Part shown: one piece after another, positions 25,039-43,360 of the stretch
Layout of the letters: every line of letters starts with the position of its first letter
Numbering within the stretch: position 1 is the first letter of the stretch
Source: Escherichia coli
Lineage (GTDB): Bacteria; Pseudomonadota; Gammaproteobacteria; Enterobacterales; Enterobacteriaceae
Reading direction: 5' to 3' (one strand)
DNA: 64,000 bases
Assembly (NCBI RefSeq): GCF_003334315.1
Contig: NZ_QOWR01000018.1
Notes under the pieces: model-generated
What the model saw: the letters and a program-made list of their open reading frames with translations, nothing else
What the model was told of the DNA's origin: nothing
Database searches by the model: none
Made by a program: the position numbers and the translations under genes

Positions 25039-27465
25039 TTATATTTTTTCGATCTCGACCAGATTAGTGTGCTGCGGGTTTCCCTTCGCCAGTGGTGAAG
25101 GGCGCAGAGTGGTTAGCGTATTCACACAGCCGCCATGGTCGATTTTATCGCCAGACATATTGGCCTCGTGCCAGGCTCCCTGGCCCATAGCGCTAACTCC
25201 AGGGAGAATACGTGGTGTCACTTTGGCTGGTAGCCGAACTTCGCCACGATGGTTAAACACCCGAACCATATCGCCGTTGGCAATCCCTCGTTTCTGCGCA
25301 TCTATAGGGTTGATCCACACCTCCTGACGGCAGGCAGCCTTCAGGAGATCAATATTGCCGTAGGTCGAGTGAGTACGGGATTTGTAATGGAAACCAAACA
25401 GTTGCAGTGGGAAGGTTCTACGTTCAGGGGAGTCCCAGCCTTCAAAGGTTGAGGTATAAACTGGCAATGGGCTTATCACTTCATCTTTTTCCAGTTCCCA
25501 GGTACGGGCAATTTCCGCCAGCCTGCTGGAATAAATTTCAATCTTACCGGAAGGCGTTTTAAGTGGATTTGCCTCGGGGTCGTCACGAAATGCTTTGTAG
25601 GCGACAAAATGACCATTGGGATCTTTACGCTTATAGATACCCATTTTTTTCAGTTCGTCGTAAGACGGTAACGCCGGATCTTTGGCAAGCATTTTGGCGT
25701 ACAGATGTTGTAACCATTGTTCCTGCGTGCGACCTTCTGTGAACTTTTGATAGACGTCAGGTCCAAGACGTTTCGCGACTTCACTCAGGATCCAGTAAAT
25801 CGGTTTACGTTCGAATTTTTCGCTGGTGACTGGCTGGAGGAAAATGAGATAACCCATGTTACCGGCGTAGTCGTTAGGAATAATATCTTCCTGCTCAACG
25901 GTCATCAGGTCTGGCAGCAGAATGTCGGCATATTTTGCCGATGAGGTCATAAAGTTTTCGATGACCACAATCATTTCGCATTTCGATTCGTCTTGCAGAA
26001 TTTCATGCGTTTTGTTGATGTCAGAATGCTGATTAACCAGGGTATTTCCCGCGTAGTTCCAGATGAACTTAATGGGCACATCCAGTTTATCTTTGCCGCG
26101 GACGCCGTCGCGGATTGCCGTCATTTGCGGGCCATGATCGATAGCATCCGTCCAGCTGAAGCAGGAGATTGACGTTTTGACCGGATTATCCAGCACCGGT
26201 AGGCGTTCTATGGTAATGGTATAGGTCGATTCTCGCGCGCCACTATTTCCGCCGCTGATGCCGACATTGCCCGTCAAAATAGGCAACATAGCAATAGCGC
26301 GTGCGGTCAGCTCGCCGTTTGCCTGGCGTTGTGGCCCCCAGCCCTGGCAGATATAAGCGGGTTTTGCTGTGCCAATTTCACGCGCCAGTTTGATGATACG
26401 GTCCACCGGGATACCGGTAATTTGCGAAGCCCACTGCGGCGTTTTCGCTGTGTTATCGTCACCTTCACCAAGAATATAGGCTTTATAGTGACCATTTTTT
26501 GGTGCATCTGCGGGTAAGGTTTTTTCGTCATAGCCGACGCAGTATTTATCGAGAAAAGGTTGATCAACGAGATTTTCGTTAATCAATACCCAGGCAATCC
26601 CCGCAACCAGCGCGGCATCGGTGCCCGGGCGAATAGGAAGCCATTCATCTTCACGACCAGCAGCCGTATCGGTATATCGCGGATCGATAACAATCATTTT
26701 GGCGTTCGATTTCTCGCGCGCTTTTTCAAGAAGATAAGTGATGCCACCGCCGCTCATGCGGGTTTCTGCCGGGTTGTTACCAAACATCACGACCAGCTTG
26801 CTGTTTTCAATATCCGTGGTGCTGTTGCCATCATTACTGCCGTAGGTGTAGGGCATGGCACAGGAAATTTGCGCAGTGCTGTAGGAGCCATACTGGTTGA
26901 GTGAACCGCCGTAGCAGTTCATCAGGCGTTTGACCGCCGAGGCTGATGGCGAAGAGCGGGTCATATTGCCGCCAACGATCCCCGAAGAGTACTGAATATA
27001 TACAGCCTCATTGCCATATTGTTCGACGGTTTTCTTCAGGCTACTGGCGATAGTATCCAGGGCTTCATCCCAGCTAATCCGTTCGAATTTGCCTTCGCCG
27101 CGTTTGCCCACGCGTTTCATTGGGTAATTCAAGCGATCGGGATGATTACTACGCCGGCGGATGGAGCGACCGCGCAAACAGGCCCGTACCTGATGGTTGC
27201 CGTACTCATCGCTGCCGGTATTGTCAGTTTCCACCCAGGTCACTTCATTATCTTTAACATGTAGACGAAGTGCACAGCGGCTACCACAGTTGACGGAACA
27301 GGCACCCCAGACCACTTTTTCGCGGGCCCGTTGTACCGATGCTGCTGCATTGCGCAGGGTAAACGGCAAAGAAAAACCGCCTGCAGCCAGCGCCAGAGAA
27401 CCTATCGCGGTAGATTTAACGAGTGTTCTGCGGCTGATGCCCACCATTCGTTCATTTTTGGACAT
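25039..27465 (-). CDS. ynfE: molybdopterin oxidoreductase YnfE (selenate reductase/DmsA paralog), Tat signal
   Basis: 808 aa; SRRTLVK twin-arginine motif. Confidence 0.92.
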   Translation of the reverse strand: MSKNERMVGISRRTLVKSTAIGSLALAAGGFSLPFTLRNAAASVQRAREKVVWGACSVNCGSRCALRLHVKDNEVTWVETDNTGSDEYGNHQVRACLRGRSIRRRSNHPDRLNYPMKRVGKRGEGKFERISWDEALDTIASSLKKTVEQYGNEAVYIQYSSGIVGGNMTRSSPSASAVKRLMNCYGGSLNQYGSYSTAQISCAMPYTYGSNDGNSTTDIENSKLVVMFGNNPAETRMSGGGITYLLEKAREKSNAKMIVIDPRYTDTAAGREDEWLPIRPGTDAALVAGIAWVLINENLVDQPFLDKYCVGYDEKTLPADAPKNGHYKAYILGEGDDNTAKTPQWASQITGIPVDRIIKLAREIGTAKPAYICQGWGPQRQANGELTARAIAMLPILTGNVGISGGNSGARESTYTITIERLPVLDNPVKTSISCFSWTDAIDHGPQMTAIRDGVRGKDKLDVPIKFIWNYAGNTLVNQHSDINKTHEILQDESKCEMIVVIENFMTSSAKYADILLPDLMTVEQEDIIPNDYAGNMGYLIFLQPVTSEKFERKPIYWILSEVAKRLGPDVYQKFTEGRTQEQWLQHLYAKMLAKDPALPSYDELKKMGIYKRKDPNGHFVAYKAFRDDPEANPLKTPSGKIEIYSSRLAEIARTWELEKDEVISPLPVYTSTFEGWDSPERRTFPLQLFGFHYKSRTHSTYGNIDLLKAACRQEVWINPIDAQKRGIANGDMVRVFNHRGEVRLPAKVTPRILPGVSAMGQGAWHEANMSGDKIDHGGCVNTLTTLRPSPLAKGNPQHTNLVEIEKI

Positions 27466-28040: not shown

Positions 28041-28757
28041 ATGATTGAGAATCATCTCTACTCTCTGGTGACTGTTGTGAAATACAAATTACTACCATGC
28101 TTACTCGCGATATTCCTCACAGGATGTGACCGCACAGAGGTAACACTTTCATTTACCCCTGAGATGGCCAGTTTCTCTAATGAATTCGATTTTGATCCGC
28201 TGCGTGGTCCGGTAAAAGATTTCACTCAGACATTAATGGATGAGCAAGGTGAAGTGACGAAACGTGTTTCTGGGACTTTGTCGGAAGAAGGCTGTTTTGA
28301 TTCACTCGAATTACTGGATCTGGAAAATAATACCGTGGTCGCTCTGGTACTGGACGCCAATTATTACCGTGATGCCGAGACGCTGGAGAAGAGAGTACGT
28401 TTACATGGAAAATGCCAGCTAGCAGAATTACCTTCTGCCGGGGTGAGTTGGGAAACCGATGATAATGGCTTCGTGATTAAAGCCAGCAGCAAACAAATGC
28501 AGATGGAATATCGCTATGATGATCAGGGTTATCCGCTGGGTAAAACCACGAAAAGTAACGACAAAACATTATCTGTCAGCGCCACGCCATCAACGGATCC
28601 GATCAAAAAATTAGATTACACAGCGGTTACTTTACTGAATAATCAACGGGTTGGTAATGTAAAACAGAGCTGTGAATATGACAGTCACGCTAATCCGGTG
28701 GACTGTCAGCTAATCATTGTTGATGAAGGAGTAAAACCCGCCGTCGAACGGGTTTAA
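28041..28757 (+). CDS. ynfC: UPF0257 lipoprotein YnfC; the true start may be the internal GTG at 28077 giving MKYKLLPCLLAIFLTGC
   Basis: Lipobox LTGC after a hydrophobic signal region; synteny. Confidence 0.82.
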   Translation: MIENHLYSLVTVVKYKLLPCLLAIFLTGCDRTEVTLSFTPEMASFSNEFDFDPLRGPVKDFTQTLMDEQGEVTKRVSGTLSEEGCFDSLELLDLENNTVVALVLDANYYRDAETLEKRVRLHGKCQLAELPSAGVSWETDDNGFVIKASSKQMQMEYRYDDQGYPLGKTTKSNDKTLSVSATPSTDPIKKLDYTAVTLLNNQRVGNVKQSCEYDSHANPVDCQLIIVDEGVKPAVERV

Positions 28758-28789
28758 ACCATCAAAAATACGATCGATTATTATTAATG

Positions 28790-29350
28790 CTATTGTGCGG
28801 TCGGCTTCAGGAGAGTCTGACCCGGTGTTTTGTGCTCTGCCAGATACTGATGCTGGAATATACACATGCGAATGGCATTACGATATTGACCATTAATAAA
28901 GAACTCGTGCATCAATTCACCTTCAACCGAAAAGCCAAGCTTGCGGTAAATGTGAATCGCTTTTTCATTCTCTTTATCAACGATCAGATACAGCTTATAG
29001 AGATTGAGAACGGTAAAGCCATAGTCCATTGCTAATTTGGCGGCACGGGTTGCCAGACCTTTCCCCTGATACTCCGGGGAGATAATTATCTGAAATTCTG
29101 CGCGGCGATGAACATGGTTAATTTCCACCAGCTCCACCAGACCGGCTTTTTCGCCGTCACATTCCACCACAAAGCGCCGTTCGCTCTGATCGTGAATATG
29201 CTTATCATACAGATCAGAGAGTTCAACAAAGGCTTCGTAGGGTTCCTCAAACCAGTAACGCATCACACTGGCGTTATTGTCGAGTTGATGTACATAGCGT
29301 AAATCTTCACGCTCCAGCGGGCGTAGCTTAACACTGTGGGCGCTTGGCAT
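28790..29350 (-). CDS. speG: spermidine N1-acetyltransferase SpeG
   Basis: 186 aa GNAT-family protein; synteny. Confidence 0.92.
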
Positions 29351-29384
29351 AACGTGTCCTTACATTCCTTAAATCAATAACAGG

Positions 29385-29726
29385 TTAGGGGGTAATAACG
29401 CGGCCAGTTCGACGGTCCAGGCAGCGCAAAGTATTGGGCTCCCAGTAGGCATTGATGTTGGCGCTTTGCTCACATTTATCGCGGTTATCAAAAGCGGCGT
29501 CGGCTTTATCCCACTCTTTTTCAGTGCGTTTATTCACTTTCTGGCGCAGATTGCGCGTGTCATTCCATTGCTCTTTTTCCATAGCGGCGTGCTGGCGGCT
29601 TTGTGCACTGTCGCCAGACTCAATCACCAGTTTGTTAGTTTCGGCATGAACAGTTGTGCTCAATGCCAGTGCGCAAGGCAGCAGAATAGCGAGCAGGCCG
29701 ATTCGTTTGCTGAGAGTGATTTTCAT
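29385..29726 (-). CDS. ynfB: UPF0482 secreted protein YnfB
   Basis: 113 aa with signal peptide. Confidence 0.85.
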
Positions 29727-29860
29727 AATTCATTCCCTGTATGAATGATTAAAGGTGATTCTACACCATCCACTGCGGACGCAAAACGTACCAGGAGGGT
29801 GTTTATATTGATGATATTATGTCGCCCTATAACTATACATGATGTCAATAAGAGACAAAG

Positions 29861-30187
29861 ATGATTAAAACAACGTTACTATTTTTTGCTACTGCGCTGT
29901 GTGAAATTATTGGATGCTTTCTGCCCTGGTTGTGGTTAAAACGAAACGCCAGTATCTGGCTGTTGCTTCCGGCGGGGATTTCACTGGCGCTGTTTGTCTG
30001 GTTGTTAACGTTGCATCCAGCGGCGAGTGGGCGTGTTTACGCGGCTTATGGTGGCGTTTATGTCTGCACGGCGTTGATGTGGCTGCGCGTTGTGGATGGC
30101 GTGAAACTGACTCTTTATGACTGGACGGGTGCGTTGATTGCGCTTTGCGGCATGTTGATCATTGTTGCGGGCTGGGGGCGCACGTAG
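29861..30187 (+). CDS. ynfA: UPF0060 small membrane protein YnfA
   Basis: 108 aa 4-TM protein. Confidence 0.85.
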
Positions 30188-30392
30188 GAACATAAATCCA
30201 TTTTATCAATAAGATAAGAGGAAGTGTCAGCTGACAAAAGGTATTCTATTTCATCTTTTGTCAACCATTCACAGCGCAAATATACGCCTTTTTTTGTGAT
30301 CACTCCGGCTTTTTTCGATCTTTATACTTGTATGGTAGTAGCTCAGTTGCGTAGATTTCATGCATCACGACAAGCGATGCAAGGAATCGAAC

Positions 30393-31607
30393 ATGAAGAT
30401 CGTAAAGGCTGAAGTTTTTGTTACCTGTCCGGGGCGTAATTTCGTCACATTAAAAATCACCACTGAGGACGGTATTACGGGCCTTGGGGATGCCACCCTC
30501 AATGGACGTGAGCTTTCCGTGGCCTCTTATTTGCAGGATCACCTTTGTCCGCAGCTTATTGGTCGCGATGCGCACCGTATCGAAGATATCTGGCAGTTTT
30601 TCTATAAAGGTGCTTACTGGCGTCGCGGTCCGGTTACGATGTCGGCCATTTCAGCGGTTGATATGGCGCTGTGGGATATTAAAGCCAAAGCTGCCAACAT
30701 GCCGCTTTACCAGTTACTCGGCGGCGCGTCTCGTGAAGGGGTGATGGTTTATTGCCATACCACCGGTCACAGTATTGATGAAGCTCTGGATGATTATGCC
30801 CGTCATCAAGAGCTTGGATTCAAAGCCATCCGCGTGCAGTGCGGAATCCCTGGTATGAAAACCACCTACGGCATGTCGAAAGGTAAAGGTCTGGCTTATG
30901 AACCCGCAACCAAAGGACAGTGGCCGGAAGAGCAGCTGTGGTCGACGGAGAAATACCTCGATTTCATGCCGAAATTGTTTGACGCGGTACGTAACAAGTT
31001 TGGTTTTAATGAACATTTGCTGCATGACATGCACCATCGCTTAACGCCTATTGAAGCGGCGCGCTTTGGTAAAAGCATTGAAGATTATCGCATGTTCTGG
31101 ATGGAAGACCCGACGCCTGCGGAAAACCAGGAATGCTTCCGTCTCATTCGCCAACATACCGTCACACCCATCGCAGTGGGTGAAGTCTTCAACAGCATCT
31201 GGGACTGCAAACAACTGATTGAAGAGCAACTTATCGATTATATCCGCACCACGCTGACCCATGCAGGCGGAATTACCGGTATGCGCCGGATTGCCGATTT
31301 TGCTTCGCTGTATCAGGTACGTACTGGCTCACACGGTCCTTCCGATTTGTCACCAGTCTGCATGGCTGCGGCGCTGCACTTTGATCTGTGGGTCCCCAAT
31401 TTCGGTGTCCAGGAATACATGGGTTATTCCGAACAAATGCTCGAAGTCTTCCCGCACAACTGGACTTTCGATAACGGCTATATGCATCCGGGAGACAAAC
31501 CGGGTCTTGGTATCGAATTCGATGAAAAGCTGGCGGCGAAATATCCCTATGAACCTGCTTATCTACCAGTCGCACGTCTGGAAGATGGCACGCTGTGGAA
31601 CTGGTAA
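30393..31607 (+). CDS. rspA: starvation-sensing protein RspA (enolase-superfamily dehydratase)
   Basis: 404 aa from [24 protein letters not shown]. Confidence 0.92.
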
Positions 31608-31618
31608 GGAGTAAGATA

Positions 31619-32638
31619 ATGAAAAGCATATTAATTGAAAAACCGAATCAACTGGCGATTGTCGAACGTGAAATACCCACCCCGTCAGCGGGTGAAGTAC
31701 GAGTAAAAGTGAAACTTGCCGGAATTTGTGGTTCAGATAGCCATATTTATCGTGGGCATAATCCTTTTGCGAAATATCCGCGCGTCATTGGTCATGAATT
31801 CTTTGGCGTCATTGATGCAGTGGGTGAAGGCGTGGAAAGCGCCAGAGTCGGTGAACGTGTTGCTGTCGATCCGGTGGTCAGCTGTGGGCATTGCTATCCG
31901 TGCTCTATAGGTAAACCGAACGTTTGTACGATACTGGCTGTATTAGGTGTGCACGCTGACGGTGGTTTCAGTGAATATGCCATGGTTCCGGCAAAAAATG
32001 CGTGGAAAATTCCTGAAGCAGTGGCCGATCAATATGCGGTAATGATCGAACCTTTTACCATTGCGGCTAACGTAACCGGACATGGTCAACCGACTGAAAA
32101 TGATACCGTTCTGGTTTATGGTGCCGGTCCAATCGGCCTGACGATCGTTCAGGTATTAAAAGGCGTCTATAACGTTAAAAATGTGATTGTTGCCGATCGC
32201 ATTGATGAACGACTGGAAAAAGCGAAAGAGAGCGGGGCTGACTGGGCGATTAATAACAGCCAGACACCGCTTGGCGAGATTTTCACTGAAAAAGGCATCA
32301 AGCCGACATTAATTATCGATGCGGCTTGTCATCCTTCTATCCTGAAAGAGGCCGTAACGCTGGCTTCTCCAGCGGCACGTATTGTATTGATGGGGTTCTC
32401 CAGTGAACCGTCTGAAGTGATTCAGCAAGGAATTACCGGAAAAGAACTCTCTATTTTCTCTTCACGCTTAAATGCAAATAAATTCCCGATCGTTATCGAC
32501 TGGTTAAGTAAAGGGTTAATTAAACCAGAAAAATTAATTACCCATACGTTTGATTTCCAGCATGTTGCTGATGCCATTAGTTTATTTGAACAGGATCAAA
32601 AACATTGCTGCAAAGTCTTACTCACTTTTTCTGAATAA
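31619..32638 (+). CDS. rspB: starvation-sensing protein RspB (Zn-dependent alcohol dehydrogenase family)
   Basis: 339 aa from MKSILIEKPNQ; GHEFFG and CGHCYPC Zn motifs. Confidence 0.92.
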   Translation: MKSILIEKPNQLAIVEREIPTPSAGEVRVKVKLAGICGSDSHIYRGHNPFAKYPRVIGHEFFGVIDAVGEGVESARVGERVAVDPVVSCGHCYPCSIGKPNVCTILAVLGVHADGGFSEYAMVPAKNAWKIPEAVADQYAVMIEPFTIAANVTGHGQPTENDTVLVYGAGPIGLTIVQVLKGVYNVKNVIVADRIDERLEKAKESGADWAINNSQTPLGEIFTEKGIKPTLIIDAACHPSILKEAVTLASPAARIVLMGFSSEPSEVIQQGITGKELSIFSSRLNANKFPIVIDWLSKGLIKPEKLITHTFDFQHVADAISLFEQDQKHCCKVLLTFSE

Positions 32639-32695
32639 TACCAATAACGGCGAGTAAGTAGTACGCATCTTACCTCTTTTTTAGAGATAACCATT

Positions 32696-32806
32696 ATGAC
32701 AATAGAAAAACACGAAAGAAGCACTAAGGATTTGGTGAAAGCAGCAGTATCGGGATGGCTGGGCACTGCGCTTGAATTTATGGATTTCAAGAGTCATGCG
32801 TGTTAA
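32696..32806 (+). pseudogene. ydfJ: 5' fragment of MFS (MHS-family) transporter gene ydfJ, truncated at the prophage junction
   Basis: MTIEKHERSTKDLVKAAVSGWLGTALEFMDF... then premature stop as the sequence becomes phage-like; in K-12 ydfJ is the Qin insertion target. Confidence 0.6.
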
Positions 32807-32825
32807 CTATTTGATAAATATTAAA

Positions 32826-34121
32826 TTAATTTTTCATTGCTTCGTTATGGGGCATGGTTGGGGCAAACTCGCTTAACTGTGTATTTAACAAAGCTACCTG
32901 TGCATTATTGTTTTCAGACATCCATTTTCCGTATACCTGAAATACCATTTGCGCATCTGCATGGCCCATCTGGTTTGCTATAAATGCCGGGTTAGCACCA
33001 GCTGTCAGCGACCAGCAGGCATAAGTATGTCTCGACTGATATGATTTTCGATGGCGGAGTCCGGCACGTTTTATCGCTGCGTCCCACATCTGCCTTATTG
33101 AGTCAACGGTAAAATGGTCACCATAATTTTTTACTCTCGCTGACACTTCAGGTTGAAAAACAAAGGTGCATTTTTGTTTTTCTGTTCTGCCATACTCTCT
33201 GAGGTGAACATCAATGATATGCTCTTTGCTCAGTCTCGTTAATGTCATCTGGCTCCGGAGAGCGTCGATTGCTGGCTTAATAAGATGAATGACCCGATTG
33301 GTTCCCGCCTGTGTTTTTGGTACCGTGAAACGGTCTTTTGCTAAATTTCTCCTGATCATCATTGTTCCATTTTTCAGATCTATGTCCTCCCATCCAAGTG
33401 CACACAGCTCACCAGGGCGAACGCCAGTATAAACAGAAACACACCATAAATTTTTTGCTTGCTGATTTCTGCACGCATCGATAAGACGGATAAATTCCTC
33501 CCGCGAAAGAGGATCCGGAATGGTTCTTGATTCCTTTAATGGCGAGATCCCCTTAAGCGGATTATCTGGCAGGTAACCGTTATCAACACCAAACTGGAAC
33601 ACGGCGTTAAGATTTGTCATGTAATTATTTACAGTTACAGCCGATCGCCCTGGTTGTGTAACAATATAGTTACTTTTGGGGATCTGGTATCCAGTCAGTA
33701 GCTCTTTACGAACCTCCAGTAATTTTTCTTTATTAATCGATGAGGCAAGATTTTTTTCACCGATTATGCTCAGGATATTTTTGATGACGGCACGGTATGT
33801 GTTGAGTGATGTTTTGGCGACTTCAGTTTCTTTCAGTGCCAGAAATTTTTCAGCCAGTTCTTTTATGGTTAAATCTTGTCGGGCCTCACCAAATTTTTCC
33901 AGATTGCGTGAGGAGGGAAACTGTTTTGCATAGTCGAAAACACCAGTTTTTATTGCGTAACAAACAGAGGAGCGTAGTTCACCTGCAACGCGCCTGTTTT
34001 TTGCTGTGTCAGGAACCCCCAGATTTTCCCTGACTCTTACGCCTTTATAAACAAACCAGATACGTAATTTCCCTCCATGGTTTTCCACGCCTGTCGGATA
34101 TTTCATTTCAACTTCTCTCAT
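32826..34121 (-). CDS. phage integrase, tyrosine recombinase (probable start at MKYPTGVENHGG)
   Basis: C-terminal catalytic motifs (R...HxxR...Y region: RHRKSYQSRHTYACW); sits at the prophage edge. Confidence 0.85.
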   Translation of the reverse strand: MREVEMKYPTGVENHGGKLRIWFVYKGVRVRENLGVPDTAKNRRVAGELRSSVCYAIKTGVFDYAKQFPSSRNLEKFGEARQDLTIKELAEKFLALKETEVAKTSLNTYRAVIKNILSIIGEKNLASSINKEKLLEVRKELLTGYQIPKSNYIVTQPGRSAVTVNNYMTNLNAVFQFGVDNGYLPDNPLKGISPLKESRTIPDPLSREEFIRLIDACRNQQAKNLWCVSVYTGVRPGELCALGWEDIDLKNGTMMIRRNLAKDRFTVPKTQAGTNRVIHLIKPAIDALRSQMTLTRLSKEHIIDVHLREYGRTEKQKCTFVFQPEVSARVKNYGDHFTVDSIRQMWDAAIKRAGLRHRKSYQSRHTYACWSLTAGANPAFIANQMGHADAQMVFQVYGKWMSENNNAQVALLNTQLSEFAPTMPHNEAMKN

Positions 34122-34140
34122 TAGTTAGTGTGGCTTTTAG

Positions 34141-34392
34141 TCAAGTAAGATGACGTCTTGGTCTCGCTGATGCCTGGCGCTCAATCCAGCGATCAATTTC
34201 TTCCAGGTTGTAAAAGCATGGACTGTTATCCCATGGCATACCGTCATGAGCGACATGCTTATATTCCCTTCCTTCCATAAACGATTTTTCCCGGGCCTTT
34301 TTTAACGTACCTTTTTTTATTCCTTTCAGCGCAATTAACTGCTCTTCGGATACCCATTTGCCGGGAGAGACAATCATGATTACTTCGCTCAT
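34141..34392 (-). CDS. putative excisionase-like protein
   Basis: 83 aa ORF immediately upstream of int in the same operon orientation. Confidence 0.45.
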   Translation of the reverse strand: MSEVIMIVSPGKWVSEEQLIALKGIKKGTLKKAREKSFMEGREYKHVAHDGMPWDNSPCFYNLEEIDRWIERQASARPRRHLT

Positions 34393-34464
34393 CGATTTCT
34401 TTATCTCTTACATCAGACGAGCGCCGGTTGCAGAATACCAGTCACAACCGGCGACAGTTGAACA

Positions 34465-36936
34465 TTAAGAATCAGCCTGACTCGGGATCAGTTTTTGCCA
34501 GATAACTGAAACGTATTTTGCCTGGTAACGGGCGTCATCAAGTGCATTATGGCGCTCACCTTCGAATGGAATAGCCGTTCTGGCATCGAAGTCTATGGCT
34601 TTCCCCAGCTCAACGATTGTGCGTACATCGCGATCGTTGTAGTAACGCCACGGGCAGGGGATCCCCTGCCGTTCGTATGAACGGCGCAAAATCGTGTTGT
34701 CGAAGTTGGCTCCATTTCCCCAAACCTGAACAAAAAATTCACCGGAGTTTTCGTCGATAAATTCCCGCAATTGTAACAGTGCATCATCTAACGGGATTTC
34801 ATCGGTCATAATGGCAGATTGCGCTTCGCGTGATTGCTTAAGCCACCATTTAATGGTGTTCCGATCAATGACTCCGCCAGCAGTTTCCAGATCGATAGTC
34901 TTACTAAATTCCGGTCCCATATCTCCGGTTTGCGGATCGAAAAATATTGCACCTATTGAGATGATCGGGGCATCAGGATTTTTTCCCATGGTTTCAAGGT
35001 CGATCATTAGATGGTCACACGTCCTGCTGGTGGATGTGATTTCGTGATGACCGTTCACCTTAATTGAGTGATCTGCCGTCTCGCCAGTTTCATTATCGCT
35101 ATTGTGATGCTGATTGCCGCCAGTGTTCTCCTTGTGTGGATGTTCAGCGCCTTCCATTTCCTCCGGATCATCTTCCTGAACTTCAACCTGATATTCTTCA
35201 TCGAATGTTTCTTGATATGTTGCGTCGCCCATCACCGCGCCACAATCAGGGCAGTTGCCGCCGCCGGTCTGACCGCAGGCGGTGCAGACTTTTTCCACTT
35301 CCTGTTGCGCCACTGGTTCAGGCTGTTTCGTTTCTGGCTCGTTTTGTAACGCATTTGTGCTGTTTTGTTCCGCTTTTTGGTAGTTCCGTTCCGATTTATG
35401 CTGGTTCTGGTTCACAGAATCGCGGGTCTGGATCCCCTTAACCCATTTCGGATCATTCGGGTCACTAATCCCTTCAACAAATTCACCACGTGATGCAGCA
35501 AGCAACTTATCGGCGTCAGGCTGGCTGATATTGGCTGCCTGCATAATTTTGTTTACTTCGTCAGCGGTAACTTTTATCGGCTCTGGTTGTTCTGAATCTT
35601 CAGCGGTATCTACATTTTGCGGTAAGCCCGTGTATGTGCCATTTTTTCGGGCAAAATATTCTTCTTTTGTGATTTCAGTGGCGCCAGCAGCCAGTGCCTT
35701 ATCCAGACCAGAAAGTTTGTTTGCGCGACCGTATTTTTCTCCGTCCTTATCTGCGAAGAGGAAATAGAACGGCCCCTCACGCTCTACAGATGGTTCAGCT
35801 TCCGGCGCGGTTTCATTTTTTGGGATATCAGATACCTCAGTTTCCACTGCATCAGTTTGTGTTTCTGATGACTGGAGAACATCAACAGTGCCCAGGTCTG
35901 TTTCTTCATTCTCAAACACGCCCTTTGTCGTCAGGTATTCGCAGATATATTTGTTCAGTGCTATGGGATCTTTGTGAATGTCGATCGGACGCTCACGGAC
36001 AAGGCCAAAAATAGTCTGGCGGTCGTAGCGAAGGGCATCAGGCTGTTTGCGCATTGATGCCGAGATACGCTTCCAGTCTTCGCGGTCGTTGTCGATAACT
36101 TCTTTTTTTGCCCAGCGATGGATGCTGCCGTCAATGTTTCCGGCATCCACATCACCAGGCCAGAGAGCGTAGGCCAGTTCGTCATCCAGTGTTTTCCATG
36201 TCTGCTTGTATTCGCGATGAATGGCAGCAATGACCGGGCTGATTTTTCCTGTTGAATTTTCAGTGTACTGTTGATTGGCTCTGGCGCGGGCGAGATCAAC
36301 AACAGACGTGTATTTTCCGGTTTCCTTGCGTTCACCTTCGCGACGTTTTTTCCAGATGCGCATCTCTGCCTGAATTTCGGGCCATTTAGCACCAGGAATA
36401 CATTTATGCTTAACCCACCCAATGGCGTGCAACTTAAGCTCCGGATACATGGCGTTAACTTCTGGCATTTTCATCAACGCTTCAACGATATGTCCGTCGA
36501 ATGTTGCCATGTCTTCCTGCAACAATTCCTGTGCGCTAATAACCATATCAACGGTGATGTTTTCACATGTGTCGAACTTAACCATGACAGCGTTCTGTAC
36601 TTCAGGGGCCAGCTTGTCAAAAGTGACGTTCATCGGATCGGATTCAGTCTCAACCGGGACAAAAGAAGCAGACTCCTCATCCCAGCGGTTTTCCTGCATA
36701 TATTCAGCATCCCATGAATCGAGGGCAGGGCGGGGTATGCCAGGTTTATCCTCGCAGACAATAAATTTATAAGCGCAGTCCTGAGCAGCCGGATAATGTT
36801 CCAGGAACTGCCAGTGAAATTTTGCTCGAGCACGGCGTTCGTCGCCAGCTTCAATGGCTGTGGCTACAGCCACAGCGCCTTCTTCCCTTGTTGCCAGTTC
36901 GTCAGGAATAGCGGCGCAAATAAAGACTTTACTCAT
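34465..36936 (-). CDS. RecE-family phage exonuclease with a C-terminal DnaQ-like (DEDDh) 3'-5' exonuclease domain
   Basis: C-terminus has Exo I (MIDLETMG), Exo II (GANFDNTIL) and Exo III (HNALDDARYQ) motifs; central DKLLAASRGEFVEGISDPNDPKWVKGIQTRD segment recalled from RecE. Confidence 0.7.
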   Translation of the reverse strand: MSKVFICAAIPDELATREEGAVAVATAIEAGDERRARAKFHWQFLEHYPAAQDCAYKFIVCEDKPGIPRPALDSWDAEYMQENRWDEESASFVPVETESDPMNVTFDKLAPEVQNAVMVKFDTCENITVDMVISAQELLQEDMATFDGHIVEALMKMPEVNAMYPELKLHAIGWVKHKCIPGAKWPEIQAEMRIWKKRREGERKETGKYTSVVDLARARANQQYTENSTGKISPVIAAIHREYKQTWKTLDDELAYALWPGDVDAGNIDGSIHRWAKKEVIDNDREDWKRISASMRKQPDALRYDRQTIFGLVRERPIDIHKDPIALNKYICEYLTTKGVFENEETDLGTVDVLQSSETQTDAVETEVSDIPKNETAPEAEPSVEREGPFYFLFADKDGEKYGRANKLSGLDKALAAGATEITKEEYFARKNGTYTGLPQNVDTAEDSEQPEPIKVTADEVNKIMQAANISQPDADKLLAASRGEFVEGISDPNDPKWVKGIQTRDSVNQNQHKSERNYQKAEQNSTNALQNEPETKQPEPVAQQEVEKVCTACGQTGGGNCPDCGAVMGDATYQETFDEEYQVEVQEDDPEEMEGAEHPHKENTGGNQHHNSDNETGETADHSIKVNGHHEITSTSRTCDHLMIDLETMGKNPDAPIISIGAIFFDPQTGDMGPEFSKTIDLETAGGVIDRNTIKWWLKQSREAQSAIMTDEIPLDDALLQLREFIDENSGEFFVQVWGNGANFDNTILRRSYERQGIPCPWRYYNDRDVRTIVELGKAIDFDARTAIPFEGERHNALDDARYQAKYVSVIWQKLIPSQADS

Positions 36937-37029
36937 TTTGTTTTAACCTCATGACAGATTTAAGGATGAACAAATCCCTGCCATTGCTGGCATATAAGAA
37001 TGAAACCGGATATTTATTACGGAACTGTT

Positions 37030-37221
37030 TTAAAGACCTGCCGGGATTTCGATATTATCCTGGTGAATAACTTTATCGACCGGGTAACAGTTACCGGGAA
37101 TTTTCTGTTCGGTTGCTGCAGTCATACACTCCTGCATTGTCCTGTGAACACTGACTGCAATATCAACTGGCTCTCCGGAAACAAGAAAAACTGTCAGAAC
37201 AAGCGCAAATGCTGAATTCAT
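37030..37221 (-). CDS. ydfD: YdfD-like small lysis-associated protein (63 aa)
   Basis: MNSAFALVLTVFLVSGEPVDIAVS...; 4-nt overlap with dicB stop. Confidence 0.7.
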   Translation of the reverse strand: MNSAFALVLTVFLVSGEPVDIAVSVHRTMQECMTAATEQKIPGNCYPVDKVIHQDNIEIPAGL

Positions 37222-37406
37222 TGTGCACATCCTTTTGGCATCAGACGTAAACGAGCCAGCATTGAAACAATGCATATTTTATTTAATAGCTCCCGTTCTT
37301 GTTTTCTCTTGTTAATGGCATCTTCAGTAAATACAGGGTTACTGATAGTGACACCAATTTCAAAACAACCTTCAGACGTATTAACGTTTGGTAATAACGT
37401 TTTCAT
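37218..37406 (-). CDS. dicB: cell division inhibitor DicB (62 aa)
   Basis: MKTLLPNVNTSEGCFEIGVTISNPVFTEDAINKRKQERELLNKICIVSMLARLRLMPKGCAQ matches DicB as recalled. Confidence 0.85.
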   Translation of the reverse strand: MKTLLPNVNTSEGCFEIGVTISNPVFTEDAINKRKQERELLNKICIVSMLARLRLMPKGCAQ

Positions 37407-37580
37407 TATCGCGTCCTCAACAATGAATTTTGTGATGCAGTGCCTGGTGCCTCCAGGTGACGTTAACCAGTTAACAATTAACGCCGGATACAGAGAATCC
37501 ACCCATAACACTGTTTTTGGTTTTAACTGTTCCGCGTGCGCTTAGCCGCATTCACCGCATCACAAAATTCACTTTAAAAA

Positions 37581-37633
37581 CGGCGGCAGAGCAGTCACGG
37601 AGTAAAACTGATACCGCCAAACGTCACCAGAAA
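37581..37633 (-). ncRNA. dicF: DicF small regulatory RNA (ftsZ-targeting) with its 3' T-run
   Basis: Reverse complement reads TTTCTGGTGACGTTTGGCGGTATCAGTTTTACTCCGTGACTGCTCTGCCGCCG followed by TTTTT, matching DicF as recalled; located upstream of dicB. Confidence 0.85.
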
Positions 37634-37908
37634 ATTGATAACAGAGGGCGTTGCAGCGGGGTTGTCACTTAAGCGTATGGTCAACCTGACAACTCGGTGT
37701 CCTCAACGGGGAAGGAATAACCCCGCCATACTTACCGCCGCGCCATTTCGCGGGTTGCCACAACCGGAAGCGCACGGTCGAATTAAATTTAACGACACCG
37801 TACAGTGAGACGAACTTCGCCGTGCGCTTTCGTGTTGTGTGCCTGCTTTTAACCACGTCAGGCGAGGTGGTATCCTTCTTATTCCGAATAACCAAGAAGG
37901 AAATCTAT

Positions 37909-38109
37909 ATGACTAAAGAAGAATTTGTCTCTTATATTTTTGATAAAACGGTTGAAATGTATGCCGCTACTTACGGGTCCTGTAATCCTCTGAATAAACC
38001 AGAGGGGAAAGATGATTTCGACAAAATTTACCGCTTCTTGGAGGACCGCTATATCAAAAGGTTAGAGGACGCAGGGATCAAATCCCCAGTGAAGTCACCA
38101 TTGTCCTGA
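37909..38109 (+). CDS. hypothetical 66 aa protein, antisense to the dicB operon
   Basis: ATG at 37909 preceded by AAGGAA RBS; MTKEEFVSYIFDKTVEMYAATYGSCNPLNKPEGKDDFDKIYRFLEDRYIKRLEDAGIKSPVKSPLS. Confidence 0.4.
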   Translation: MTKEEFVSYIFDKTVEMYAATYGSCNPLNKPEGKDDFDKIYRFLEDRYIKRLEDAGIKSPVKSPLS

Positions 38110-38455
38110 GAACTTGCAGGACGTCATGATCGTAACTTCCATCCAAACCGCGACGGCAAATTGCTTCTCGTATTACCGGAAGCAGTTCGCTGGAAATCTC
38201 GGTGCATATTTCACCTGCTAATACGCCTGGCTCAAGTGAGAATATTGGTGAACTTACGGTCTTGGTCTCGACAGTTTCAGAGTCAGTGCCAACATTATAA
38301 AGCTCAACGAAAGCGGTCTTGATTTTCCGGGCCAGATCTTTTGCTGGCTCGCTTGCAATATCTTTCCCGATTTCTCGCAGCACAGAATGCAATGTATGAG
38401 CTGCTGTTTTCTGTACATCAGACGGTAAATCTTTAAATTCCATCGTCAGCCTCAT
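38078..38455 (-). CDS. hypothetical 125 aa protein in the dicB operon (position of K-12 ydfB/ydfC)
   Basis: ORF between ydfA-like gene and DicF on the operon strand. Confidence 0.5.
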   Translation of the reverse strand: MRLTMEFKDLPSDVQKTAAHTLHSVLREIGKDIASEPAKDLARKIKTAFVELYNVGTDSETVETKTVSSPIFSLEPGVLAGEICTEISSELLPVIREAICRRGLDGSYDHDVLQVLRTMVTSLGI

Positions 38456-38607
38456 CAGTCAGTGTTTCTGGCTAACCAGCAACGCGCGCCAGATTCGGTT
38501 TTAAACGTTTTGCTTTTGGTATATGTCATCGCGGTGAACGTACCGTCCTGGTTGGGGAACACGCCACATACCAGAGATTCGCTGTTGCCAAGATCGATAG
38601 TATCCAT
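38455..38607 (-). CDS. YdfA-like small protein (50 aa)
   Basis: First small ORF downstream of the Ob-like operator; MDTIDLGNSESLVCGVFPNQDGTFTAMTYTKSKTFKTESGARCWLARNTD. Confidence 0.5.
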   Translation of the reverse strand: MDTIDLGNSESLVCGVFPNQDGTFTAMTYTKSKTFKTESGARCWLARNTD

Positions 38608-38721
38608 GCTGACCTCATTTCCCCTTAACGCCGGGGTAGCGGAACTGTTTGCTGAGAACACCGTGCGGTGTGTTGATGGAGGTAATTTAGTTTTCTCATT
38701 ATTTTTCGTCAAGGTTTTTTG

Positions 38722-38735
38722 ATGAGAAAACTCAA
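38722..38735. promoter_or_regulatory. operator-like palindrome (candidate DicA site Ob) upstream of the ydfA-dicB operon
   Basis: TGAGAAAACTCAAGTATTG, near-identical copy of the motif at 39258-39276. Confidence 0.55.
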
Positions 38736-38799
38736 GTATTGGCGCAAGATAAAGCCAATACATTGAAATGTAAGGCTTTAAAATTTTGTGAAGGGATGA

Positions 38800-39207
38800 T
38801 TATTGATGCTTGTTGCGTTTGCGAGCCTCTAATAGCTCGGTGAACAGGCGATTAAAATTCTCAACGCGGGCGCGGAGTTCGCTGAGTTGTGCTTGTTGCT
38901 CTGATTTAGGAAGTGCGCGATACAAACGCAGCATCTCTAACTCATCTTCCGATAAGTCTAAGGCACTATCGAGTGAAACAGGGGGAGCTGGTGTTTTGTC
39001 CTCGTCGCCAAACAGTATCCAGGTTGGTGAACATTGCAATACCTCGGCGAGGCGATGCAAATTTTGCCCACGCGGGGCTGTATGGTCACTTTCCCATAAT
39101 GAAATTGATGAGCCAGATACGCCAGCAGCTTTGCTTAAACCGTTTTGACTTAAGCCTACCTGCTTACGTCTTTCTCTAATGCGTTGACCTAAAGTTTTCT
39201 CGTTCAT
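38800..39207 (-). CDS. dicA: DicA repressor (XRE-family HTH, 135 aa from MNEKTLGQRIRERR)
   Basis: HTH motif and conserved LQCSPTWILFGDEDK segment recalled from DicA. Confidence 0.85.
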   Translation of the reverse strand: MNEKTLGQRIRERRKQVGLSQNGLSKAAGVSGSSISLWESDHTAPRGQNLHRLAEVLQCSPTWILFGDEDKTPAPPVSLDSALDLSEDELEMLRLYRALPKSEQQAQLSELRARVENFNRLFTELLEARKRNKHQ

Positions 39208-39257
39208 ATTTAGATATCTTAATAACCCTTGACTTGAGATTCCTTGAGTGATTAGCA

Positions 39258-39271
39258 TTGAGAAAACTCAA
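39258..39271. promoter_or_regulatory. operator-like palindrome (candidate DicA site Oc) in the dicA-dicC divergent region
   Basis: TTGAGAAAACTCAA inverted repeat between divergent dicA and dicC starts. Confidence 0.55.
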
Positions 39272-39284
39272 TATTGGAGGTGCG

Positions 39285-39512
39285 ATGTTTAAATCAGACG
39301 TAATTAATTTTTACGGTACGAAAGCCAAAGTAGCGAAAGCTGCTGGCGTTGACCCATCTGCTGTTTCTCAATGGCAAGAGCTGGTTCCTGAAGGTCGCGC
39401 GATGCGTCTACAGGAGGCATCTGGCGGGGAGCTTCTGTATGATCCCAAGGTTTATGACGAATATCGTAAGACGAAGCGGGCGGGGCGGTTGAACAATGAA
39501 AATCACTCCTGA
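39285..39512 (+). CDS. dicC: DicC (Cro-like regulator), ATG with GGAGGT RBS
   Basis: C-terminal LVPEGRAMRLQEASGGELLYDPKVYDEYRKTKRAGRLNNENHS as recalled for DicC; divergent from dicA. Confidence 0.75.
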   Translation: MFKSDVINFYGTKAKVAKAAGVDPSAVSQWQELVPEGRAMRLQEASGGELLYDPKVYDEYRKTKRAGRLNNENHS

Positions 39513-40017
39513 ACAGGCTCGTGAGGCTCTGGATGCCTGGATATGTCGACCAGGAATGACACAGGAGCAGGCGACGATATTAATCACTGAAGCATTCTGG
39601 GCTTTGAAAGAGCGCCCGAACATCGATGTTCAGCGTGTCACAGATGAAGGTGGCGCGGTTGATCAGCGAGCGCTTGGCGTTAATCGAGTGAAGATATTCG
39701 AACGCTGGAAGGCTATCGACACCAGGGATAAGCGTGAAAAGTTCACGGCGCTAGTGCCTGCAATTATGGAGGCTATCCGGATTAATGATTTCAGGTTGTA
39801 TCGTGAAATTAGTGACGGAAAAAGCATCACGTACATGATCGCCGGGTTAAACAAAGAATATGGCGATGTGGTGGAGTCCGGACTGCTTTTTGCTGATCCT
39901 GCCGTAGTGGATCGTGAAACTGACGAACTTATAGAAAAAGCAATTGCTTTCAAACTTGCGTATCGACAGCAATACCAACAAAAAGCTGGATGGAATTATG
40001 AGCCTTCTTTTTGCTGA
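39496..40017 (+). CDS. YdaT-like early-region protein (173 aa)
   Basis: Position immediately after the cro-like gene; weak resemblance to Rac YdaT. Confidence 0.45.
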   Translation: MKITPEQAREALDAWICRPGMTQEQATILITEAFWALKERPNIDVQRVTDEGGAVDQRALGVNRVKIFERWKAIDTRDKREKFTALVPAIMEAIRINDFRLYREISDGKSITYMIAGLNKEYGDVVESGLLFADPAVVDRETDELIEKAIAFKLAYRQQYQQKAGWNYEPSFC

Positions 40018-40963
40018 ACGCCCACTGGTTATAAACACACAGCTTGCGATGAAGATTGGCTTAAATGAAGCCATTGTGTTGCAGCAGTTGCATTACTGGT
40101 TGAGAGATACCAATTCCGGCATGGAATGTGATGGTGTTCGCTGGATTTACAACACAACGGAACAATGGCTGGAACAGTTCCCATTCTGGTCAGAGTCAAC
40201 GTTAAAGCGCGCGTTTGCAAGTCTGAAAACGCTGGGGCTTTTGCGTTGTGAAAAGCTCAATAAATCAAAGCGCGATATGACCAATTTCTACACGATCAAC
40301 TATGGGAGCGAGCTTTTAGATGGTGGCAAATTGAACGAATCCATCGGTTCAAAATGCGCCGCTCCATCAGGTCAAAATGACACGATGGAAGAGGTCAAAA
40401 TGAAACGCTCCATTGGTTCAAAACGACCCAATGTCATCGGGTCAAAATGGCCTGATGATCTTACAGAGAATACAACAGAGATTACTACAGAGAATAAAAA
40501 CACTTTTCGTCCGGAAGCTTCGCAACCGGACCCGCAGACCGCTGAACAGGATTTTTTAATCCGGAACCCCGACGCGGTTGTGTTTAGTGCGAAAAAACGC
40601 CAGTGGGGTAGCAGGGAGGATTTGGCGTGTGCGCAGTGGATTTGGGGGCGGATCGTGAACCTTTACGAACAGGCTGCCAGCGACGATGGAGAGATCATGC
40701 GACCAAAAGAGCCTAACTGGACAGCCTGGGCCAATGACGTGCGCACAATGCGGATGCTGGATGGCAGAAGCCACAGACAAATTTGCGAAATGTTTGGTCG
40801 GGTACAGCGAGATCCATTCTGGGTAAAAAACATCATGAGCCCGTCAAAACTCCGCGAAAAATGGGACGAACTGGTCATCCGCTTGGGACGTTCACCTGTA
40901 CAGCGTTGTGTGAATCATATTTCTGAACCGGATACAGAAATTCCGCCTGGTTTCAGGGGATAA
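39998..40963 (+). CDS. putative phage replication initiation protein (O/YdaU-like N-terminal domain)
   Basis: 321 aa from MSLLFAERPLVINTQLAMKIGLNEAIVLQQLHYWL; position in the replication module. Confidence 0.5.
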   Translation: MSLLFAERPLVINTQLAMKIGLNEAIVLQQLHYWLRDTNSGMECDGVRWIYNTTEQWLEQFPFWSESTLKRAFASLKTLGLLRCEKLNKSKRDMTNFYTINYGSELLDGGKLNESIGSKCAAPSGQNDTMEEVKMKRSIGSKRPNVIGSKWPDDLTENTTEITTENKNTFRPEASQPDPQTAEQDFLIRNPDAVVFSAKKRQWGSREDLACAQWIWGRIVNLYEQAASDDGEIMRPKEPNWTAWANDVRTMRMLDGRSHRQICEMFGRVQRDPFWVKNIMSPSKLREKWDELVIRLGRSPVQRCVNHISEPDTEIPPGFRG

Positions 40964-41003
40964 GTGTTGATTTCAGGTCATGAGGTAATTTTAAGGAGGA
41001 CTT

Positions 41004-41426
41004 GTGGCAAAAGTTTTTACACAGGAAGAGCGGGAAAAAATTAAAGAGCAGGTGGTCGAACTTGTGCGCCAGAGCGGTCGCGAGACATTACGACAGTTGG
41101 AAGCTAAAACAGGTGCGACAAGATATCTGATGAGCATTCTTGCCAGAGAGCTGGTTGCCAGTGGTTATGTATACAACTCCGGCTACGGGTTATTCCCGTC
41201 TGAACAGGCACGAAAGGACTGGCAAAATGCCCGCAAAAAACTCTCTAGGGCGAAGGTGAAGAAACCCGCTGTGGTTGATCCGGACCTTATCTGGTCACTA
41301 CCTGATGGAGAAATACGTCGCTACGACAGTCGTCTAAACATAATCTGTCGCGAGTGCCGGAAGAGTGAAGCTATGCAGCGTGTACTGGCTTTCTATCAGG
41401 GTAATTTTCAGGAGGCGGTACTGTGA
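41004..41426 (+). CDS. hypothetical protein (140 aa), early region
   Basis: ORF with upstream AGGAGG RBS; no recognizable family. Confidence 0.5.
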   Translation: MAKVFTQEEREKIKEQVVELVRQSGRETLRQLEAKTGATRYLMSILARELVASGYVYNSGYGLFPSEQARKDWQNARKKLSRAKVKKPAVVDPDLIWSLPDGEIRRYDSRLNIICRECRKSEAMQRVLAFYQGNFQEAVL

Positions 41427-42107
41427 GTGAAATTAGCTATCAGGCTTCAATTACCGCTGGCATTCGCATCAAAGGAGAGGAGCATGGAAATAAAACCAGA
41501 GGATTAGTTAAGCAATATCGTTTTATTTCCGATAAAAGAGGATGACCCTCGTAATCAGGTTAATTTTCTTTATGAGCCATCGGAAAGACCATATTGCCAT
41601 CACGCTTCTGTCCGGGTTGACGAAAAAGAGCGTCAGGTCCGCTGTAAAATCTGAGGTGCAGTTGTGGAGCCATTTGACTGGATGCTCTCTGTGGCGAAAA
41701 GAGAAACCAGACTGGCAGATGATGTAAGGCTCTTGCGCCAGGAGGAACGGGAAAGACGAAAAAATATAGAAAAGCTAATTCAGATTGAGCGTAACGGGAA
41801 AGCGCGGATACGCAGGGTGACAAAATCCAGAACTGAATAATTAAATTTAGCACTGTTAAAAATTTAATCCTTAACCGGAGGGATTTCTGCACCCTCAGAA
41901 CATCAGGAGGCCGCCCGAAAGGGCGGTAGTTAAATGCGAAAGTTTAAAATAATTATTGAAACGGGAATAGCCGGTGGAGATTTCGAGGATGAATTCGAAG
42001 TGGATAATGATGCGACGCCTGATGAAATACATGACGAAGCAAAAGATATTTTCTTTAACTACTGCAATTAATCATATCACGAAATAAAAGACGAAGAGGA
42101 AGAACAA

Positions 42108-42284
42108 AATGGCTGATTTTGGTTCAACTAAATACAACGTCGGTTTTGAAGAATGGCATGAACTGTTAATGGACTATGCAGAGTTACGTGGTGGCAGTGC
42201 TGCTGATGCTGAAGCATGGCGTGATGATTATGAAGCAGGAAAAACTCCGGTCGAAGCATATTGTGATGAGTGGGGCGATGAATG
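42108..42284 (+). CDS. hypothetical small acidic protein (58 aa)
   Basis: ATG with AGGAAG RBS; stop overlaps the start of a further small ORF (ATGA coupling). Confidence 0.35.
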
Positions 42285-42767
42285 AGCGAGGTTAATTATC
42301 AGGAAGGGCATGAAACGGCGGGGCAAGCAAAAACAGTGGCATGGCGATATCGCTACGTGAAAAAAAGGCGTTACGGACTTTCAGGGGAAGTAGTGGTCTG
42401 GTGACTGGAAATATGTACCGAAAAAAGAGGATTGTAACGATAGGCCGAACTATGAAATTCAGGCCTTATTCACTGCCCCGCCAGTCCCGGTTACATCAGA
42501 AGAACTGGTTAAAGCTGTGCACTTTTATGAACAACTAAAACGCGAAAATCCACCAGCATCCGGAAACCTGATTACAGGTTCCCAGATAAGGCAATGAGCT
42601 ACCTGGCGCAGAACGGGCTGATAAGTATGGGGAATGTTTTACGATGAATATTTAGACTAAAGAGTTTGTAACGCTATGTAAGTGATTTTTTCTGGTTTAG
42701 ATATTTATATGTCCGGCTAAATTGAGGTGTGTTTAAATGTTATTGCACATTGATTGTAGGGGGAATA

Positions 42768-42947: not shown

Positions 42948-43204
42948 ATACAGCGAACTCCATTGGTTTAGTTGGATATTTACTGTGCTGGACAAAACGG
43001 TTTGCGGGGAAATCTTAGTTAAGTAGAATGACTGCGGGTACTTGAGGCTATCTGCCTCGGGCACGAACACCAACGGCAGGTAGAGAAAAGCCCCAGTTAA
43101 CATTACGCGTCCTGCAAGACGCTTAACATTAATCTGAGGCCAATTTCATGCTAGACACATGTAGGTTAGCCTCTTACGTGCCGAAAGGCAAGGAGAAGCA
43201 GGCT

Positions 43205-43360
43205 ATGAAGCAGCAAAAGGCGATGTTAATCGCCCTGATCGTCATCTGTTTAACCGTCATAGTGACGGCACTGGTAACGAGGAAAGACCTCTGCGAGGTA
43301 CGAATCCGAACCGGCCAGACGGAGGTCGCTGTCTTCACAGCTTACGAACCTGAGGAGTAA
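43205..43360 (+). CDS. hokD: Hok-family type I toxin (HokD/RelF-like, 51 aa)
   Basis: MKQQKAMLIALIVICLTVIVTALVTRKDLCEVRIRTGQTEVAVFTAYEPEE; upstream in-frame leader ORF from 43148 (mok-like). Confidence 0.85.
   Translation: MKQQKAMLIALIVICLTVIVTALVTRKDLCEVRIRTGQTEVAVFTAYEPEE

Follow-up and report, generated by a model that had tools for sequence, protein, structure and literature searches.

Probable attL of a lambda-like Qin/PPydfJ prophage inserted in ydfJ of Escherichia coli

Prophage insertion in ydfJ is textbook biology of Escherichia coli K-12 and is documented across the species, including for the effector- and Shiga toxin (Stx)-carrying prophages of Shiga toxin-producing E. coli (STEC). 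In K-12, the record places intQ (a pseudogene), ynfP, and rspB at the end of the "cryptic prophage Qin", and integration of Qin at the 5′ end of ydfJ has been described, with a 28-codon N-terminal truncation of YdfJ (PMC6379469). Prophages of STEC at the same locus (PPydfJ) have an att sequence of 18 or 19 bp, the attP of one of them was determined on a PCR amplicon, and ydfJ phages are stated to be present in many E. coli, K-12 among them (Nakamura et al. 2021, PMC8112680, S7 Fig for the att sequences). Among active relatives, Tritos is prophage 3 of the adherent-invasive E. coli strain LF82, where it is spontaneously induced to 2.8x10^6 genomes/mL; images showed a siphovirus, and a plaque was obtained on MG1655, while Ev081 is described as an infant-gut phage (PMC9928086). 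Here, we analyzed a 64,000-nucleotide stretch of E. coli contig NZ_QOWR01000018.1 (assembly GCF_003334315.1; hereafter "the window"), in which the start of ydfJ meets a convergent tyrosine integrase gene at positions 32,696 to 34,121. We read this segment as the attL of a lambda-like Qin/PPydfJ prophage that is probably still able to excise, and estimate the probability of this reading from sequence comparisons at about 0.9. The junction itself belongs to an already known prophage family with a lambda-type integrase (Int) and excisionase (Xis).

The ydfJ junction and its att sites

The chromosomal gene to the left of the insertion site is rspB (31619–32638, + strand), which was seen as an open reading frame (ORF) and is annotated in the collinear genomes S171-1, 2018-06-4CC, IBS28, and K-12; it is preceded by rspA (30360–31607). 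After a spacer of 57 nt follows a chimeric ORF of 36 codons (ydfJ′/ynfP, 32696–32806, +), which encodes MTIEKHERSTKDLVKAAVSGWLGTALEFMDFKSHAC and whose stop codon lies 19 nt from the stop codon of int, starting at 32826. The original prediction had described, from the sequence alone, a 36-codon ORF with the N-terminus of a major facilitator superfamily (MFS) transporter, ending about 20 nt from an integrase gene on the opposite strand. Both the ORF, to the base, and the arrangement were correct, although its identity with ynfP and the published description of the junction had been missed. A scan for promoter and terminator consensus sequences at the junction returned no more matches than shuffled controls, and none in the rspB–ynfP spacer.

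We reconstructed the uninterrupted site (attB) by joining the left flank from the window to the right flank from IBS28, which yielded 1011 nt with an open frame, MTIEKHERSTKDLVKAAVSGWLGTALEFMDFQLYSLGAALVF…, reading into intact YdfJ. This sequence is uninterrupted in 2007 of the 5426 complete E. coli genomes, where it is annotated as "MHS family MFS transporter YdfJ" beside rspB, and it is 100% identical in BLK9 and BLK16, two engineered variants of K-12. Since the first 31 codons run in frame into ydfJ once the flanks are joined, the 36-codon ORF is, by this reconstruction, the genuine start of ydfJ and not a chance ORF. Given that the joined flanks occur uninterrupted in these 2007 genomes, codons 1–31 (32696–32788) represent the N-terminus of YdfJ, while codons 32–36 (KSHAC) and the stop are phage-derived DNA, i.e., the first in-frame bases of the phage.

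The att sequence was delimited by comparing attL with the attR of four genomes (L001, L002, L003, and L004) and with the attP of phages mEp460_ev081 and Tritos. At attL, it corresponds to the 19 nt TGAATTTATGGATTTCAAG (32773–32791), within which an 11-bp core, TTATGGATTTC (32778–32788), is exactly common to attL, attR, and attP. While attL reads …GCGCTTGAATTTATGGATTTCAAGAGTCATG…, attR reads …ATCTGTGAATTATGGATTTCCAGTTATATTCG… in all four genomes compared (S171-1, 2018-06-4CC, IBS28, and K-12), and the likeness of the two ends widens to TGAATT(T)ATGGATTTC(A/C)AG, 18/19 nt, if one T indel is allowed. This length appears consistent with the published PPydfJ att sequence. The same 11-bp core is also what phage attP (…TGTGAATTATGGATTTCAAGAGTCAT…) and chromosomal attB (…CTTGAATTTATGGATTTCCAGTTA…) have in common, and the crossover, as far as sequences can place it, falls within it. 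The att repeat escaped a repeat finder that was run over the entire S171-1 prophage with a length threshold of 14 nt, since the exact core spans just 11 nt; the core was instead identified by direct junction-to-junction comparison.

The attP predicted from attL and attR is found exactly in the mEp460_ev081 genome, and with one core mismatch (GCATTTC) in that of Tritos. A scan of viral contigs also recovered the exact attP 26-mer in two IMG/VR contigs (L009, 6629–6654; L010, 2531–2556), a count that is weak as evidence of prevalence. In both contigs, the likeness to mEp460_ev081 stops at L006 position 24624, i.e., at the start of the first repeat of the P arm described below, so that the conserved int–attP cassette seems to be bounded by its arm sites.

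At the far end, S171-1, 2018-06-4CC, and IBS28 carry a ydfJ pseudogene annotated as "missing N-terminus" 44.7–46.8 kb to the right. A matching repeat and ydfJ remainder at the distal end, the check proposed with the original prediction, are thus present in three relatives of 99.87–99.95% identity, while the corresponding end of this copy lies beyond the window. In the source genome, attR is expected to read …CTGTGAATTATGGATTTCCAGTTATATTCGC…, with the remainder of ydfJ and then ydfI behind it, near window-equivalent position 77,800. We also considered whether the phage supplies a new N-terminus to the displaced part of YdfJ, and rejected this since the phage-side ORF that enters attR (ATGAGAAAAAAC…) is offset from the ydfJ frame by one T.

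The att core contains an ATG (TT ATG GAT TTC) that is codon 29 of intact YdfJ (L004, 48701) and the annotated start of the 427-amino-acid "YdfJ" of K-12 (L003, 3003–4286). Because this ATG is used as the start of YdfJ, the K-12 annotation lists both split halves, ynfP and ydfJ, as separate proteins; for annotation purposes, the 36-amino-acid "YnfP" and the 427-amino-acid "YdfJ" would best be seen as two halves of one phage-split transporter gene.

Taken together, these sequences suggest that a phage tyrosine integrase inserted the element into the MFS transporter gene ydfJ at about codons 26–32. Recombination of attP with attB within TTATGGATTTC left the ydfJ promoter and 31 codons joined to five phage codons, giving YnfP, and moved the rest of ydfJ to the far end of an element of about 45 kb, as in the near-identical relatives. 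The resulting attL would be lambda-like, with a core, an integration host factor (IHF) bend site, and two phased arm repeats bound by the N-terminal domain of Int, and would overlap the 3′ end of int. For excision, Int, the adjoining Xis, and host IHF would synapse attL with attR.

K-12 Qin shares the insertion point in ydfJ, attL and attR, and an identical YnfP ORF with this element. Nucleotide identity to K-12 reaches 99.78% over window positions 28534–33985, in agreement with the earlier suggestion of a Qin-type left junction in ydfJ next to rspB, and 98.3% over 36170–37850 (the ydfD, dicB, and DicF region), while hokD, rem, ydfU, rrrQ, rzpQ, cspI, and gnsB are common to both at 93–94%. Gene content is likewise collinear (int, ydfE/exonuclease, ydfD, dicB, DicF, hokD, rem, ydfU, lysis genes, cspI, gnsB). 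In K-12, however, intQ is cut by IS2E at the equivalent of position 33985, where an IS2E remnant takes over, and the likeness returns only at 36170. Lacking this interval, K-12 has therefore lost the N-terminus of int, all of xis, and the greater part of the exonuclease gene. K-12 Qin is also only 20.5 kb long, without head or tail-shaft genes, whereas head and tail genes are seen in the window; the two further differ in their immunity region and Q gene, and relBE is present in K-12. By this comparison, the window copy is an undecayed form of the cryptic K-12 Qin, and would thus illustrate an undecayed, probably mobile, and ancestor-like form of Qin with close kin among human-gut phages.

The arrangement is widespread. 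A megablast query of window positions 31600–34500 was covered at ≥80% in 2638 of the 5426 complete E. coli genomes, with the annotation rspB, tyrosine-type recombinase/integrase, excisionase, and exonuclease. A stricter query of ydfJ′, int, and xis, which leaves out K-12-like truncations, was still covered at ≥80% in 2357 of them (~43%).

Integrase, excisionase, and candidate arm sites

The integrase gene (int, 32826–34106, −) encodes 426 amino acids from a PGAP-style start at 34106, or 431 from an upstream in-frame ATG at 34121. The product matches the Pfam domains Arm-DNA-bind_2 (PF12167, E = 3.7e-23) and Phage_integrase (PF00589, E = 8.4e-18, residues 201–392) and PHROG_1 (integrase, E = 3.3e-76), along with sequence matches in the PDB to XerA and Tn1549 Int. 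In an alignment with solved recombinases, IntR of the Rac prophage, and VT1-Sakai Int, the catalytic positions R230, K264, R359, H382, and Y392 are all kept and no inactivating change was found; R230, K264, Y356, R359, H382, and Y392 are invariant between this Int, Rac IntR, and VT1-Sakai Int. A full-length integrase had been proposed earlier, with inactivating changes named as what would refute an excision-competent element. Both domains and the catalytic positions are in fact kept here, and the integrase is full length, unlike K-12 intQ.

Next to int lies xis (34141–34392, −), encoding an 83-amino-acid excisionase (PHROG 539, E = 1.4e-35) that is 100% identical to an "excisionase family protein" of IBS28. 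It is followed by an exonuclease gene (34465–36936, −; 823 amino acids) with a full-length match to PHROG 2082 (exonuclease), of which K-12 keeps only a piece (ydfE).

In a tblastn search of a phage collection, Int was 99.3% identical in Tritos, HannyBb, and PhiR42_1, and 98.8% identical in mEp460_ev081. From int, through xis and the exonuclease gene, as far as dicB, the sequence shares 98.8% identity with Tritos (OV696610), and the block spanning int, the immunity region, O, and DUF977 (32790–41408) is 96.5% identical to mEp460_ev081 (LR597641). The cos end and the terminase, head, and tail genes show 96–98% identity to both phages, and large blocks of the prophage are 91–99% identical to these two. 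Both free or active phages nevertheless differ from the window prophage between DUF977 and hokD, in Q itself, and in the genes that separate Q from holin, and Tritos also differs in its immunity region.

To the right of the core, the sequence offers candidates for each element of a lambda-like attL arm. An exact match to the IHF consensus, TATCAAATAGTTA (32804–32816, −), begins 16 nt right of the core, overlaps the ynfP stop codon, and falls in the stretch separating the core from the arm repeats, a position that makes it a candidate H′-like bend site. The pattern used (WATCAANNNNTTR) has 9 matches on both strands of the window, and no exact IHF consensus was found in the P arm at attR of IBS28. 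Two TGGGGCA repeats (32848–32854 and 32859–32865, +), 11 bp apart and within the last codons of int, are candidate P′ arm-type Int sites.

The degenerate motif TGGGRCA occurs only 8 times on both strands of the window. Phased pairs or triplets of it are found on both att arms of Qin-type elements (mEp460, Tritos, and the IBS28 attR) and of VT1-Sakai, which is inserted at yehV. In K-12 Rac (att site in ttcA), the attL side holds one exact copy and a near-copy with an extra G, and the attR side a single copy. At the arms, the motif runs antisense to int; Rac has one further copy, which lies within intR and points the other way. Overall, the (A/T)TGGGRCA motif is found in 2–3 copies with 11-bp spacing, ~60–85 bp from the core on the int side and ~115–145 bp on the far side. 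From this position and recurrence, we infer that the TGGGRCA repeats are arm-type Int sites. The N-terminal arm-binding domain is well conserved across the window Int, Rac IntR, and VT1-Sakai Int, and we tentatively raise the further possibility, which we hold to be doubtful, that (A/T)TGGGRCA is the binding site of Arm-DNA-bind_2 domains common to ydfJ-, yehV/mlrA-, and ttcA-targeting integrases.

Should these arm sites be genuine, the C-terminal tail of Int (…PTMPH…) in the Qin and VT1-Sakai types would be under constraint from the overlapping DNA sites. A limited literature search on the arm sites of these integrases turned up no description of them; if true and undescribed, they would represent a small addition to the architecture of lambdoid att sites. 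This candidate motif is a minor by-product of the analysis, which could help to delimit att boundaries for these integrases.

The likeness to lambda thus concerns an Int with arm-binding N-terminal, core-binding, and catalytic parts, a xis gene adjoining int, and an attL in which core, IHF consensus, and phased arm repeats lie by int, the latter being candidate sites proposed here from their sequence position. Unlike in lambda, the core has another sequence, attB is inside a protein-coding gene instead of the gal–bio intergenic region, Int has a tyrosine at the position of the first catalytic histidine, and the candidate P′ arm overlaps the coding sequence of int. The candidate arm motif TGGGRCA presumably also differs from the lambda arm consensus.

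State of this copy and alternative readings

From position 32789, the prophage runs past the end of the window at 64000, as indicated by collinearity, at 99.87% identity, with the 45.0-kb prophage of IBS28 and by Rfam matches. It includes dicB, DicF, repressor/cro, O, hok/sok, ydfU, Q, a moron cluster, and a lysis cassette, followed by terminase, portal, head, and tail genes. The cos site was placed at ~52967/52968 by alignment to the genome ends of Tritos (…CCTGCCACG | GGGCGGGAGCGT…). To assess gene state, the IBS28 annotation from int to tail gene T was mapped onto the window: these genes are intact and almost all identical to IBS28, the exceptions being ydfU, ynfN, and two small pseudogenes. 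The window holds intact copies of int, xis, attL, repressor/cro, O, and Q, and of the genes for lysis, terminase, portal, head, and proximal tail, whereas those for the tape measure, tip, J, and fibres fall beyond it. The window prophage is also collinear over 29100–64000 with the prophage of IBS28, which is free of insertion sequence (IS) elements; no IS interrupts the prophage within the window, as the original prediction of an IS-free element would have it.

The alternative that survives best is that the element is a "grounded" prophage, defective like K-12 Qin in being non-excising or non-productive, with an intact left end and lesions elsewhere. We consider this a possible but unlikely account. 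Several observations do weigh against a mobile copy. First, the position of the first catalytic histidine of Int is occupied by a tyrosine (Y356). Second, ydfU (DUF968; 44175–45224), just upstream of Q, carries a private TAA nonsense codon, E181* (44715–44717, +), where IBS28 and S171-1, the two nearest relatives compared at this codon, have GAA. Third, a T8 run of IBS28 is reduced to T7 at ~51540–51547 in ynfN (51524–51753), a 1-nt frameshift of its long form. Fourth, two small pseudogenes lie in the DUF977–hokD interval (41517–41840 and 42282–42647); they are base-identical in IBS28 and are annotated in S171-1 and 2018-06-4CC as well, one with an internal stop and one frameshifted. In the sister prophage of 2018-06-4CC, terminase and gpJ are interrupted by internal stops and the O gene is truncated, and because of these lesions members of this prophage lineage, at least by their sequences, do decay. 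Sister copies also carry IS5, IS1, or IS3 insertions, and intQ mutations are frequent among Qin-locus prophages according to a review (PMC6379469). Finally, attR, which is placed ~13.8 kb past the window, the remaining tail genes, and the ydfJ remainder are known only from relatives, and the distal end of this copy may have been lost, interrupted by an IS, or embedded in a tandem cluster of prophages. These relatives comprise the three genomes compared directly, none of which is identical to the window: IBS28 (99.87%), S171-1 (99.95%, with IS5/IS1), and 2018-06-4CC (with an O deletion and pseudogenes).

Other observations favor an element that can still leave the chromosome. Because Rac IntR and VT1-Sakai Int carry the same tyrosine, Y356 is by this alignment a trait of the subfamily rather than a lesion, and we rejected it as an inactivating change. 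The nonsense codon in ydfU affects a gene just upstream of Q, i.e., in the position of the dispensable nin region of lambda, and from this position ydfU is presumably dispensable too. Most importantly, the genes from int through the proximal tail are intact and 91–99% identical to those of viable phages, while excision requires int, xis, attL, and attR alone. Among these requirements, together with host factors, Int, Xis, and attL are intact here. Excision competence appears reasonable because near-identical int, xis, and attP modules belong to live phages. We thus consider that this copy is rather likely to be excision-competent, and that full phage viability is somewhat less likely.

A much less probable alternative is that ynfP is an independent, selected small-protein gene with its own function. 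The ORF product is identical to YnfP of K-12 (b4534, 36 amino acids), which is annotated as such at the same locus in the K-12 record and was among the small proteins detected in K-12 as a tagged protein (PMC6001520, Table 1), and an identical arrangement exists in >2300 genomes. However, its first 31 codons are the exact start of the intact ydfJ found in prophage-free genomes, its last five codons and stop are merely the first in-frame bases that the phage happened to provide, it is present only where the prophage is inserted, and it has no PHROG match. Detection of YnfP indicates no more than continued activity of the ydfJ promoter and ribosome-binding site. We therefore judge an independent function very improbable, and retain ynfP as the stub of ydfJ left by integration.

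A chance juxtaposition through homologous rearrangement or an assembly artefact, without site-specific integration, is effectively refuted, as nothing direct was found in its favor beyond the ydfJ–ompW prophage inversions of some STEC that could move the far end (PMC8112680), while the same junction occurs base for base in thousands of complete genomes and the attP, attB, attL, and attR sequences agree mutually.

Other features of the window

Several features of the prophage body lie outside its integration module. Between Q and holin, a three-gene cargo block (45775–48571) encodes a lipocalin/Blc-like lipoprotein (− strand), a YbgA-family protein, and a helix-turn-helix regulator. This block is absent from mEp460_ev081 and Tritos, and the G+C content is 36–37% just downstream (47–49 kb). 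The interval between Q and holin is the position at which Stx phages carry stx. For comparison, PPydfJ prophages of STEC often form clusters of 2–4 prophages with type III secretion system effector or stx cargo, none of which is seen in the part of the element covered by the window.

The cell-division and lysis effectors known from the cryptic Qin, namely the DicF small RNA (37581–37632, −; Rfam, 72.5 bits), dicB (37218–37406, −), and ydfD (37030–37221, −), are found here in a complete-looking phage, and also in the active Tritos. An Rfam match to sok (43036–43360, 99.9 bits) lies upstream of and overlaps the start of hokD, and relBE, the neighbor of hokD in K-12 Qin, is absent beside it in the window. 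Further along, the leader and coding sequence of cspI (51040–51252) fall within a match over the full length of the cspA thermoregulator RNA family (50882–51298, 109.8 bits). The K-12 record gives a shorter ynfN, of 156 nt. An exact IHF consensus (53031–53043) is located 63 nt downstream of the cos site placed above, an arrangement probably similar to that of lambda cosB.

In the chromosomal part of the window, two adjoining ORFs of 808 amino acids each (22555–24981 and 25039–27465, −) are presumably the ynfE/ynfF paralogue pair, judging from the K-12 gene order.

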